Positions 55,620 through 60,897 of a stretch of 64,000 bases of DNA are shown here, one piece after another; position 1 is the stretch's first letter; every line of letters starts with the position of its first letter. This DNA comes from Candidatus Methanomethylicia archaeon. Lineage in GTDB: Archaea; Thermoproteota; Methanomethylicia; Culexarchaeales; Culexarchaeaceae. The position numbers and the translations under genes are program-made. The DNA lies in contig JAVYVS010000001.1 of NCBI GenBank assembly GCA_038727515.1, positions 416,001 to 480,000 on the forward strand, written 5' to 3'. Under the pieces are notes generated by a model, which was not told where the DNA came from, did no database searches, and saw nothing but the letters and a program-made list of their open reading frames with translations.

Positions 55620-56486
55620 TTGGGTTTAACAAAAATTAAATTGCCAACAGAAATACCGCTTGAAATATATCCAAAACCCATGGAATTTGTAGAAGAAGCA
55701 AAATCCATAGTTGAAGAAGCAGAGAAAAGAGGTATTATAATGAGGGTTATGGGTGGATTAGCAATATACCTTTTGATAAGTGGAACTATATATGAAGAAT
55801 TATGGGGTAAAATGGAGAGACTTGGAGAAAGAGTTTTCACAGATATAGATTTAGCAGCATATGGTAGAGATAGAGATAAAATATTGAGATACTTTATGGA
55901 GAGGGAGAAAGGGGTATATATTATCTGGCAACCATCATTAGCATTTTACGCTGGTAAGAGGTATATCTTCTATGGTTCACCGGAAAAACAAGAATATAAA
56001 GGTAAAATTGTTGGTAGAATACCAATGATAGAAGTATTCTTTGATAAGCTTCAAATGAATCATGAAGTACCATTTAAAGGTAGATTGGAAAAGGGGAAAT
56101 ATACACTTCCACCCACAGAACTCCTATTAACAAAATTACAAATAGTTAAGATAAATGAGAAGGATATTAAAGATAGCATAATACTGTTATCAGCATTCGA
56201 CGTATTAAACTCAGATAACGAAATAAATGGTGATTATATAGCTAAATTATTGAGTAATGATTGGGGATTCTACTATACATTTACAACAAATCTAAATAAG
56301 GTTAAGGAAGCTGTAATGAATAAATACAATGATAGAATTAATGAAGAACTCAGAATTAAAATTACTGAGAGAATTGAAAAATTAATTAAAAGGATAGAAG
56401 AAGAACCTAAAAGCATGAGTTGGAAGATGAGAGCAAAAATAGGAACTAGTAAGAAGTGGTATAATGAAGTGGAAGAATGGAGTTAA
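55620..56486 (+). CDS. Uncharacterised Pol-beta-superfamily nucleotidyltransferase-like protein
   Basis: hhGGhA (RVMGGLA) then DxD (TDIDL), third acid IEVF, LLLTKLQ, NEKDIKD, C-terminal WKMRAKIG..KWY. Confidence 0.65.
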   Translation: MGLTKIKLPTEIPLEIYPKPMEFVEEAKSIVEEAEKRGIIMRVMGGLAIYLLISGTIYEELWGKMERLGERVFTDIDLAAYGRDRDKILRYFMEREKGVYIIWQPSLAFYAGKRYIFYGSPEKQEYKGKIVGRIPMIEVFFDKLQMNHEVPFKGRLEKGKYTLPPTELLLTKLQIVKINEKDIKDSIILLSAFDVLNSDNEINGDYIAKLLSNDWGFYYTFTTNLNKVKEAVMNKYNDRINEELRIKITERIEKLIKRIEEEPKSMSWKMRAKIGTSKKWYNEVEEWS

Positions 56487-58515: not shown

Positions 58516-58582
58516 ACAAATTCAAAAACTATAAACTATAAACGTATATATATCACTTACCAAAAATGGTTTAGAGATTGAA

Positions 58583-59587
58583 ATGAAAATGAGAGAGTTA
58601 ATCAATAAAATTAGAAGTTCAGCTCAATTAGCTTCAATACTTGAAGTCAGTGGTTGGCCTAAACCTGGAAATGTTCATAGAACTAGAAATCAAATAGATG
58701 CACGCTATGAACACTTCTTAGCGGGAGCAATAGCATTAGCACCATCAATAGAATTAGCAGCATTAAAGGGGATAATGGCAGCAAAGGGGAAAATTGAATT
58801 GCAGGATATAGGGATAGGTAGAATAATAAAAAGGGCGGTTATAGATGTCTCAAAATCACATAGCGATGGAAATACACATTTAGGTATATGCCTACTCTTC
58901 ATTCCATTATCAATAGCATCATCAAAAAGCTATATAGAAGAAGAATGTTTTACACCATCAAAAATAATGCAGAACATTAAATCAATAATTAAATCAACAA
59001 AACCAATAGATACAATTAGAGTTTATGAAGCTATTAAAATGGTTAGTTCAGAAAATGAATTAGGTAGAAAATCAAATGGTAGATCACCAGACATATATGA
59101 TAAAAACTTTAGAAGGAAAATTCAAAAAGAAAATATCACATTATTTGATGCAATGATGGAATCATCAACATATGATACAGTGGCAAAAGAGCTTACCACT
59201 GGAATGGAGATATCCTTTAACATTGGATTTAAAGAATTAATGAAGACATTTGAGGAAACTAGAGATATAAACATATCAATTGTACACACATACCTAACAA
59301 TACTATCAAAATACCCAGATACATTCATAGCAAGGAAAATTGGGTTAAAAAGGGAAAACGACATAAAAAGAGCTGTTGAAATAGGAATAAAAGAAACTAT
59401 TTGGATTTCAAAAGAAGCAGAAGAAATCCTAAAACTAGGTGGATTAAAAACTGAAGAGGGAAGGAAAGCCTTATGGGAATTAGATGAAAAATTGTATAGG
59501 CTAGGTAAAGAATACAATCCAGGAACAACAGCAGATTTAACAGCATCATCAATAATGATATCATTATTAATGGGATTAAAATTCTAA
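58583..59587 (+). CDS. CitG-family triphosphoribosyl transferase (archaeal type)
   Basis: LEVSGWPKPGNVHR, NTHLG, PDTFIARK, NPGTTADL. Confidence 0.85.
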   Translation: MKMRELINKIRSSAQLASILEVSGWPKPGNVHRTRNQIDARYEHFLAGAIALAPSIELAALKGIMAAKGKIELQDIGIGRIIKRAVIDVSKSHSDGNTHLGICLLFIPLSIASSKSYIEEECFTPSKIMQNIKSIIKSTKPIDTIRVYEAIKMVSSENELGRKSNGRSPDIYDKNFRRKIQKENITLFDAMMESSTYDTVAKELTTGMEISFNIGFKELMKTFEETRDINISIVHTYLTILSKYPDTFIARKIGLKRENDIKRAVEIGIKETIWISKEAEEILKLGGLKTEEGRKALWELDEKLYRLGKEYNPGTTADLTASSIMISLLMGLKF

Positions 59588-59605
59588 AATTCAGAGTGGA
59601 AATTA

Positions 59606-60628
59606 ATGAAGGCACGTGAAGGAGATTTCATAGAAACAATTGAAGGATTAATATTTGATGTAAAAGGACTTATACACCCAAAAGATAGAGTAATAGCATA
59701 CCTCAGATATTTTGAAGATCCATTTGGAAATAGAATTAAAAATGGAAAGAAATATTCAAAGGTATACTCTCTAATGGATAGAGATAATATTCTAAAAAGA
59801 AAATATCCACAGTACATATATTATGATCAAATATTTGGAGAATGGTTGGAGGGAGTTCCAAAGGATAGAATAATAAAACACTATAAACCACAAGAAAAAA
59901 TACAAATACTACAGAAAAAGCATAGATTAGATGAAATCGAAGAAAAAGCTTTGGAATTAGTACAAGTAATACATGATTCCACAAAAATACCCATAGAAAA
60001 ATTTGGTATATCTGGATCAATCTTAATAGACCTTTACACTATCGATTCAGATATAGATGTAATCGTATATGGGAAGAAGAATTGTAAAGCAGTATATGAA
60101 GAATTAAAAGCATTATTAAAAAATGATGAAAGACGATTTTCACCATACAAACTTGAGGATTTAAAGAAATTATATGAATTTAGATCAAAAGATACATATA
60201 TGGACTTTAAAGACTTCTGTAAGATTGAAAGTAGGAAGGTTTCACAAGGGAAATTTATGGGTAAAGATTTCTTCATAAGATTCATATTAGATTGGGATGA
60301 AGTAAATGAAGATTATGGTGATTACATCTATAGAGGATTGGGGAGGATTAGGATTAAAGCTATAGTTGAAGATGATGAATATTCAATATTTACACCATGC
60401 AAATATGTAATATCAAATGTAGAGATTTTAGAGGGGGAGAGGAGTGTTACTCCACCAATAGAGATAGTATCATTTAGAGGTAGATTCTGTGAACAAGCAA
60501 GGAGAGGTGAAGAAATAATAGCTGAAGGAAAAATTGAAAAAGTAATTTCAAAATATGGAGATGAATATAACAGGCTTCTAATAGGCAATAAACCATTAGA
60601 TTTCATGATAGTAAAAAATTTTATTTAA
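59606..60628 (+). CDS. Predicted nucleotidyltransferase (COG1665-like) with C-terminal OB-like region
   Basis: GISGSIL...SDIDVIVYG (GS + DxD), FDVKGLIHP, SFRGRFCEQA. Confidence 0.75.
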   Translation: MKAREGDFIETIEGLIFDVKGLIHPKDRVIAYLRYFEDPFGNRIKNGKKYSKVYSLMDRDNILKRKYPQYIYYDQIFGEWLEGVPKDRIIKHYKPQEKIQILQKKHRLDEIEEKALELVQVIHDSTKIPIEKFGISGSILIDLYTIDSDIDVIVYGKKNCKAVYEELKALLKNDERRFSPYKLEDLKKLYEFRSKDTYMDFKDFCKIESRKVSQGKFMGKDFFIRFILDWDEVNEDYGDYIYRGLGRIRIKAIVEDDEYSIFTPCKYVISNVEILEGERSVTPPIEIVSFRGRFCEQARRGEEIIAEGKIEKVISKYGDEYNRLLIGNKPLDFMIVKNFI

Positions 60629-60633
60629 TTTAT

Positions 60634-60897
60634 TTAAGTCAATCTCTTCTTAACAGCTCTATCATAAACAATCCAATTTTCATATGCTTTAACATTATTC
60701 TCCTTTAATAACTCAAGAACTCTAGTTCTAAGCTCCTCAGTTTTAACCTCCTCTCTACCAGTAAATTCTCCTTCAATTCTACCAGTCAATTCACGAGCAG
60801 TAGTTAAATCAACTCCAGCCTTCAATAATGAAGTAACCAATTTCTCACGAGCAAATTCCTCTATTCTCCCATCTCTTTTAACAACTTTCAAAACCAT
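60634..60897 (-). CDS. Stand-alone ATP-cone domain protein
   Basis: VVKRDGRIEEFAREKL ATP-cone signature, 87 aa. Confidence 0.85.
   Translation of the reverse strand: MVLKVVKRDGRIEEFAREKLVTSLLKAGVDLTTARELTGRIEGEFTGREEVKTEELRTRVLELLKENNVKAYENWIVYDRAVKKRLT

Follow-up and report, generated by a model that had tools for sequence, protein, structure and literature searches.

A gene of the CitG family and an adjoining gene for a nucleotidyltransferase (NT1), found in a 64,000-nucleotide stretch of the genome of a Candidatus Methanomethylicia archaeon (GenBank assembly GCA_038727515.1, contig JAVYVS010000001.1, positions 416,001 to 480,000; the whole stretch is here called the window), are very likely linked, at the level of the pathway, to synthesis of a methanopterin-type cofactor. 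Both families are part of the gene complement for cofactors of the tetrahydromethanopterin (H4MPT) type: in bacteria as well as in several lineages of archaea, their genes are clustered with one another and with mch, ftr, mptG, DUF447 and DHPS-like genes. By analogy with CitG and CitX, the pair might build or rebuild the tail of the cofactor in two steps, i.e., transfer of a triphosphoribosyl group to the ribitol, then formation of a phosphodiester with hydroxyglutarate, a model that we consider evenly poised between right and wrong.

Conserved linkage of the two families to H4MPT genes

The pair and its flanking elements are laid out in the window as follows:

58516-58582, + strand: A+T-rich intergenic region of 67 nt, common to the pair and the divergent succinyl-CoA ligase beta gene
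58583-59587, + strand: CitG-family open reading frame (ORF) P0001, 334 amino acids, full-length match to PF01874
59588-59605, + strand: spacer of 18 nt between the two genes, read from the sequence
59606-60628, + strand: ORF P0002 (NT1), 340 amino acids, Pol-beta-type nucleotidyltransferase with a GS...DxD motif, weakly over the PF01909 cut-off

The initial annotation had described a CitG-family gene followed 18 nt later by a GS/DxD nucleotidyltransferase, and the ORF coordinates agree with it exactly. A purine-rich GAGTGG in the spacer precedes the NT1 start codon, and the two genes are probably co-transcribed. The 67-nt region upstream is the likely promoter of the pair, judging from a TATA-like 'ctataaactataaacgtatatatat'.

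The source genome (1.59 Mb, 93.6% complete) also encodes the C1 (one-carbon) enzymes that use such a cofactor. They lie outside the window:

Contig 2, 62.2-73.1 kb (L083:2236-13078): complete H4MPT/methanofuran C1 cluster

The gene order in this cluster is ftr-mtd-fwdDB-fwdA-fwdC-mch, followed by genes for an MptN-like RimK ligase, a second nucleotidyltransferase (NT2, 37% identical to NT1), a MobA-like protein and a mer-like protein of the luciferase family. The ligase scores 252.8 bits against NF040720, below the cut-off of 350. A genome without H4MPT-dependent genes, which had been named as an outcome that would count against a role in methanopterin synthesis, is thus not what we found, Mch, Ftr, Mtd, a Mer-like protein and Fwd all being encoded.

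Among 80 loci from other species that encode a relative of NT1, CitG lies at most 3.3 kb from an NT1-type gene in 69, an adjacency far beyond chance. In 28 of the 80 it immediately precedes the NT1-type gene on the same strand, with a spacing of 16-52 nt retained, and in 41 it is divergent, mostly at a distance of 0.8-1.3 kb. No CitG gene is nearby in the other 11 loci, three of which end at a contig edge. Three genomes of the Sulfolobus-like family f24 show a third arrangement, in which a gene for a distant member of the NT family is directly upstream of CitG and overlaps it; the gene profile of this family is that of the S. acidocaldarius control. C1 genes are close neighbors in several genomes. 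The order in G190, from the coordinates of the matches, is paralogue-NT1-CitG-Mch, while CitG abuts Mch in G183, G231 and G240, and Mch abuts an NT paralogue in G130 and G231. On one metagenome contig (L102) CitG is divergent from NT1-DUF447-MptG-flavoprotein, and another (L103) reads ftr-fwdC-RimK-NT1-mch...NT2...CitG.

The phyletic distribution of the families was determined in 251 Thermoproteota genomes, the Euryarchaeota being represented only by control results for CitG, Mch, MptG and MfnB. Genomes with matches were:

Nucleotidyltransferase: 111 of 251
CitG: 112 of 251
Mch: 62 of 251
RFAP synthase (MptG, TIGR00144): 89 of 251
MfnB: 43 of 251

Nucleotidyltransferase and CitG occurred together in 101 genomes, the former alone in 10, the latter alone in 11 and neither in 129, counts that, given the kinship among the sampled genomes, describe a pattern and are not a statistical test. 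Mch or RFAP synthase was present in 110 of the 112 genomes with CitG and in 107 of the 111 with the nucleotidyltransferase. The profiling proposed with the initial annotation shows the two families to be co-distributed with each other and with Mch and MptG. Whole families lack all four genes (nucleotidyltransferase, CitG, Mch and RFAP synthase), including 22 genomes of the class to which the source genome belongs. Families f15, f21 and f24 carry the pair and RFAP synthase without Mch and without MfnB; f9 is like them save for one genome, with MfnB in one of its 10. This pattern indicates that the pair follows the methanopterin-type arylamine cofactor, and neither methanofuran nor the C1 enzymes as such. 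There was no hit for RFAP synthase in 36 of the 62 genomes with Mch, and 28 of these 36 keep CitG. Two small families show other combinations: all three genomes of f23 have RFAP synthase alone, and both genomes of f27 have the nucleotidyltransferase and RFAP synthase but no CitG.

Bacterial homologues keep the same company. Protein P0157 (L085:5626-7143; 505 amino acids) has FolK/HPPK at its N-terminus fused to the nucleotidyltransferase (149 bits for HPPK, cut-off 54), and P0350, P0377 and P0380 represent further clusters of such fusions. The gene for P0157 adjoins a flavoprotein gene and a DUF6513/pterin-binding DHPS-like gene, and its 4.5-Mb host carries MptG-MtdB-ATP-grasp-Ftr-Mch-RimK...CitG. 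A complete 6.9-Mb chromosome from the same order has NT1, DHPS-like, DUF447, MptG, fhc, mch, RimK and CitG in one 17-kb string. In 41 genomes of this order, Mch is found in 20, CitG in 18 (all with Mch) and NT1 in 15 (all with CitG); the 21 genomes that lack Mch have neither CitG nor NT1. This order-level sample was used in place of one from the phylum of bacterium G251, in which G251 itself was the sole yield from 101 genomes.

The orf7/CitG gene is also carried by 36 proteobacterial replicons (megaplasmids or chromids). The one of these that was opened, plasmid p2 of Azospirillum brasilense, has the order mch-RimK-CitG-fae, and mch-RimK-CitG was confirmed in this plasmid, G251 and G389. In G389 NT1 immediately precedes the DHPS-like gene; in G251 it lies two genes from it. 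The order mch-orf5-orf7-fae is that published for the "archaeal-like" H4MPT-linked C1 islands of methylotrophic bacteria (PMC3615186). No nucleotidyltransferase was found on the 36 proteobacterial replicons even at E ≤ 1, in a search that did not cover the chromosomes of these organisms. Methylorubrum extorquens makes dephospho-H4MPT, which has no phosphate and no hydroxyglutarate (PMC8141765), and the presence of CitG with no nucleotidyltransferase in the proteobacterial islands fits such a cofactor. An equation of methylotroph "orf19" with the nucleotidyltransferase was dropped: the gene beside the DUF6513 gene in the Azospirillum island appears to be DUF447, and the nucleotidyltransferase is absent there.

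The two proteins

P0001 matches the Pfam CitG profile PF01874 with an E value of 1.6e-63 (215 bits, cut-off 27), residues 13-326 aligning to positions 3-283 of 284, and the motifs KPGNV, GNTxLG, PDTxIxRK and NPGTTAD are invariant in P0001 and 24 homologues (25 sequences). It falls under the NCBIfam equivalog cut-offs for CitG and MdcB (44.1 bits against 272 for TIGR03125, 37.6 against 282 for TIGR03132 and 47.8 against 280 for NF002315), and those alignments cover partial stretches only. The gene is present in single copy in the source genome, and its product is 30.6% identical to that of the gene in the orf7 position in bacterium G389. P0001 is a candidate ATP-dependent 5-triphospho-α-D-ribosyl transferase, orthologous to orf7 of the bacterial H4MPT-linked C1 islands: its family, like orf7, is a PF01874 family that is linked to and co-distributed with mch, orf5 (RimK) and mptG. 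The CitG-like gene in the window is not itself beside mch; in the source genome only NT2, the paralogue of its partner, is.

P0002 is a member of the Pol-beta-type nucleotidyltransferase superfamily, both by its motif (GISGS...SDIDVIVYG) and by its palm fold. It passes PF01909 weakly (23.9 bits, cut-off 21), with other Pol-beta models weaker still; no NCBIfam model matched it, nor did the CitX profile PF03802. The predicted structure (predicted local distance difference test, pLDDT, 93.5) divides into three parts: a beta domain at the N-terminus (residues ~1-100), a Pol-beta-type palm that holds the GS...DxD motif (~104-230) and an OB fold at the C-terminus (~240-340). Searches with this model returned generic OB folds (Z 8-9) and palms of the PolX/TdT/Trf4 kind (Z ~7), and a search of solved structures by sequence gave no relative at E ≤ 1. 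As the Foldseek/VIA matches are generic only, no specific structural relative was identified; CitX and MdcG are absent from these lists, which does not exclude a relationship with them.

The NT1 family comprises 3470 homologues, or 1346 representatives at 50% identity, with a mean column identity of 64% among 22 homologues. There are 2-5 NT paralogues per archaeal genome. In the tree P0002 falls in the CitG-linked NT1 orthogroup, with NT2 and a third paralogue in separate clades, and residues G134, G137, S138, S148, D149 and D151 are invariant across the paralogues, the catalytic GS...DxD being intact in all. No fusions of at least 596 amino acids were found, which is weak evidence, as the HPPK fusions are of ~505 amino acids. 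A prediction of a complex between the CitG-like protein and NT1 (alignments A3 and A1), run without controls, scored 0.00, which speaks neither for nor against an interaction. Distant relatives of NT1 are encoded by 20 Streptomyces plasmids (22-27% identity over 76-90% of the length, best E 5e-7), where they are annotated as hypothetical protein, e.g., NZ_CP108475.1:105012-105914.

A candidate route to the methanopterin tail and its rivals

CitG moves the ribose 5-triphosphate of ATP onto a hydroxyl, forming an α-glycoside, and in the reaction of CitX or MdcG serine then displaces pyrophosphate (PPi). In methanopterin the ribitol is linked (5→1) to an α-ribofuranosyl 5-phosphate that is esterified to 2-hydroxyglutarate, so that the α-ribofuranosyl 5-phosphate unit is common to the CitG product and to methanopterin. 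On the model that we favor, the CitG-like enzyme would take ATP, expel adenine and place the 5-triphospho-α-D-ribosyl group on the 5-hydroxyl of the aminophenyl-ribitol moiety, the reaction type and the α-glycoside being the same as when CitG acts on dephospho-CoA. At NT1 an alcohol would then attack the α-phosphate and PPi would leave, as with CitX/MdcG and serine; in methanopterin proper the alcohol would be (S)-2-hydroxyglutarate. In a variant of the second step, NT1 would adenylylate a ribose 5-phosphate, the AMP being displaced afterwards. Bacteria that make dephospho-H4MPT would need the CitG step only.

CitG with CitX in citrate lyase, and MdcB with MdcG in malonate decarboxylase, are likewise pairs of a PF01874 enzyme and an enzyme of nucleotidyltransferase fold, and the chemistry proposed here is identical in form, with loss of adenine followed by loss of PPi. 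Unlike those systems, ours comes with no carrier protein, no CitX/MdcG-family partner and no lyase. P0001 is far under the equivalog cut-offs, NT1 is another, larger nucleotidyltransferase whose palm is preceded by a beta domain and followed by an OB fold, and the acceptors predicted are small molecules rather than dephospho-CoA and serine. There is a likeness to orf7 as well, which is of the same family and keeps the same genomic company; NT1 is missing from the replicons that carry the proteobacterial orf7, whereas the P0001 gene has an NT1 partner and is probably translationally linked to it. CofC and CofD, which build the tail of F420 by joining a 2-hydroxy acid in phosphodiester linkage via a nucleotide-activated intermediate, offer a further analogy; their protein families are unrelated to the pair, and they activate the hydroxy acid side, not a ribose triphosphate. 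MptN (tetrahydromethanopterin:α-L-glutamate ligase) is another tail-tailoring enzyme, and an MptN-like RimK gene lies beside NT2 and mch in the source genome. Unlike the pair, MptN is an ATP-grasp ligase that acts once hydroxyglutarate is in place; its bacterial homologue, orf5/MyfB, acts on methylofuran (PMC8141765).

Under the name orf7, the CitG homologue has for years figured among the H4MPT-linked genes of unknown function (PMC3615186). In the searchable full-text literature, which did not include the 2005 Kalyuzhnaya paper on the islands, no reaction is assigned to it and the NT family is not mentioned; nor is any enzyme in the searchable literature assigned to attaching the α-ribose 5-phosphate or the hydroxyglutarate of methanopterin. 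The initial annotation had proposed that the pair carries out late steps of side-chain synthesis. Its link to the pathway has held up, through the co-distribution, the HPPK-nucleotidyltransferase fusions and the proteobacterial islands that lack the nucleotidyltransferase, while the ribitol acceptor and the coupling of hydroxyglutarate keep the standing of a proposal.

Several observations weigh against this assignment of steps. Family f18 has CitG and MptG/RFAP synthase but no nucleotidyltransferase in six of six genomes, and 10 genomes have the nucleotidyltransferase without CitG. The C-terminal OB fold of NT1 is commonest in nucleic-acid binders. Cell extracts studied by R. H. White reportedly used 5-phosphoribosyl 1-pyrophosphate (PRPP) as the second ribosyl donor, with a separate ATP-requiring step for hydroxyglutarate. 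In the source genome RFAP synthase (TIGR00144) gave no hit (best score 18 bits), and PF00809/DHPS-like, PF02649 (GCHY-1), DUF6513, DUF447 and MfnB were not found either; with RFAP synthase and the pterin-branch genes missing, the presumed acceptor would need to be imported. One coupling step, finally, does not explain why archaea have several NT paralogues that are all catalytically intact, and the fusion of NT1 to HPPK or its position beside a DHPS-like gene in bacteria could mean a step nearer to the pterin.

Another step for NT1 would be in keeping with the HPPK fusion, with the OB fold and with there being several paralogues, and the main alternative keeps the pathway and changes the reaction. 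NT1 would not couple hydroxyglutarate, but would turn a phosphate derived from the pterin or from RFAP into an activated nucleotide adduct, close to the HPPK/DHPS-like step, or the paralogues would attach other, lineage-specific tail groups. That the fusions recur, that NT1 is close to the DHPS-like gene in G389 and G251, that it heads an operon with DUF447 and MptG in L102, and that 2-5 intact paralogues occur per archaeal genome all speak for this. It has to contend with the proteobacterial islands, which have DHPS-like, DUF447, MptG and CitG genes but no NT1, so that NT1 appears dispensable for the dephospho-H4MPT core. Moreover, the most conserved partner of NT1 is CitG and not the pterin genes, and the source genome, although it lacks every early gene searched for, keeps NT1, NT2, CitG and the MptN-like ligase. 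We consider this alternative possible but on the whole rather unlikely.

Explanations that take the pair out of methanopterin synthesis fare much worse. Were it to serve another C1 cofactor of the same clusters (methanofuran, F420 or molybdopterin), the presence of fwd, MobA-like and F420_ligase-like genes among the neighbors would be accounted for, and several "H4MPT-linked" bacterial genes did later prove to be methylofuran genes (PMC8141765). However, MfnB is found in only 43 of the 251 genomes and is missing from the pair-bearing families f15, f21 and f24 and from nine of 10 f9 genomes, and the best predictor of the pair is MptG or Mch. Neither methanofuran nor methylofuran, to our knowledge, contains ribose, and we judge this explanation very unlikely. 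The classical function, i.e., synthesis of 2'-(5''-phosphoribosyl)-3'-dephospho-CoA and its attachment to an unrecognized carrier protein, would suit the full-length PF01874 match with its conserved family motifs, and MdcG, like NT1, has a nucleotidyltransferase fold. The lack of CitD/MdcC acyl carrier and lyase genes that had been noted for the window extends to the whole 93.6%-complete genome, in which no match was found for CitX (PF03802), CitD (TIGR01608), the MdcC-type acyl carrier protein (TIGR03130) or CitF (PF04223). With P0001 scoring about 38-48 bits against equivalog cut-offs of 272-282, with a distribution that tracks Mch and MptG rather than lyases, and with a bacterial orthologue that is the orf7 gene of the C1 islands, this function is highly improbable. 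Just as improbable is that NT1 is an RNA (e.g., tRNA) nucleotidyltransferase whose link to CitG is incidental, as its OB fold and its poly(A)-polymerase/PolX-like palm might suggest. The NT family was not found in whole Thermoproteota families (f2, 0 of 22; f7, 0 of 34; f12, 0 of 17; f16, 0 of 19), which is not the pattern of a housekeeping RNA enzyme; in addition, the linkage to CitG and mch is conserved in three arrangements and NT1 is fused to HPPK.

Methanopterin is the one-carbon carrier in methanogenesis, anaerobic methane oxidation, the archaeal Wood-Ljungdahl pathway and bacterial formaldehyde oxidation, and the pair provides concrete, expressible candidates for its tail steps, with a mechanism borrowed from CitG/CitX. 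If the two-step model is right, bacterial orf7 would acquire a function, and the NT1 family, with over 1300 sequence clusters and no model of its own, could be named.

Possible salvage of the cofactor core, and surroundings of the pair

Relatives of the source genome within its family likewise lack RFAP synthase, DUF447, DHPS-like, GCHY-1 and MfnB genes; the source genome and these relatives nevertheless retain CitG, NT1, NT2 and the MptN-like ligase. It is possible that the organism cannot make the core of either the methanopterin-type cofactor or methanofuran and is auxotrophic for both. Most of the 41 divergent loci, which are from Bathyarchaeia, have between CitG and NT1 a gene for a hydrophobic, membrane-type protein of 230-330 amino acids, for example:

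L052:5212-5961, + strand: hydrophobic protein gene between CitG and NT1, no Pfam hit

The top matches of the model of this protein (pLDDT 82.6) are all S components of energy-coupling factor (ECF) transporters, with weak E values (best 9e-3); those that it resembles, i.e., BioY, PanT, ThiT, FolT and RibU, are vitamin-specific. The missing early genes, the retained CitG, NT and ligase genes and the ECF-like membrane protein together suggest salvage of the core followed by rebuilding of the tail. The CitG-like enzyme would then join NT1/NT2 and the MptN-like ligase in a module for salvage and re-tailing in archaea that have lost the pterin branch and RFAP synthase, a speculative reading that we hold to be doubtful. 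A tail-less methanopterin core would be imported, in many Bathyarchaeia via the ECF S-component-like protein, and the anionic ribose-phosphate-hydroxyacid tail would be rebuilt in the cell, activating and trapping the cofactor. The nucleotidyltransferase paralogues would set the tail acceptor, which could account for the known diversity of methanopterin-like tails. Some uncultured archaea would, on this reading, rely on neighbors for the cofactor core. Unrecognized early enzymes or gaps in the assembly are a possible alternative to salvage.

Scans of the window for tRNA genes and with Rfam gave no matches. A 288-amino-acid ORF at 55620-56486 (+ strand), downstream of an amino-acid permease gene, has no Pfam match and is not among the two matches to the NT1-family profile in the whole genome. 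The pair is isolated in the window, with divergent succinyl-CoA ligase genes upstream and a convergent ATP-cone gene downstream. The latter encodes a stand-alone ATP-cone domain protein of 87 amino acids (60634-60897, - strand; PF03477, E 1.5e-12), and its end lies 5 nt from the NT1 stop codon.

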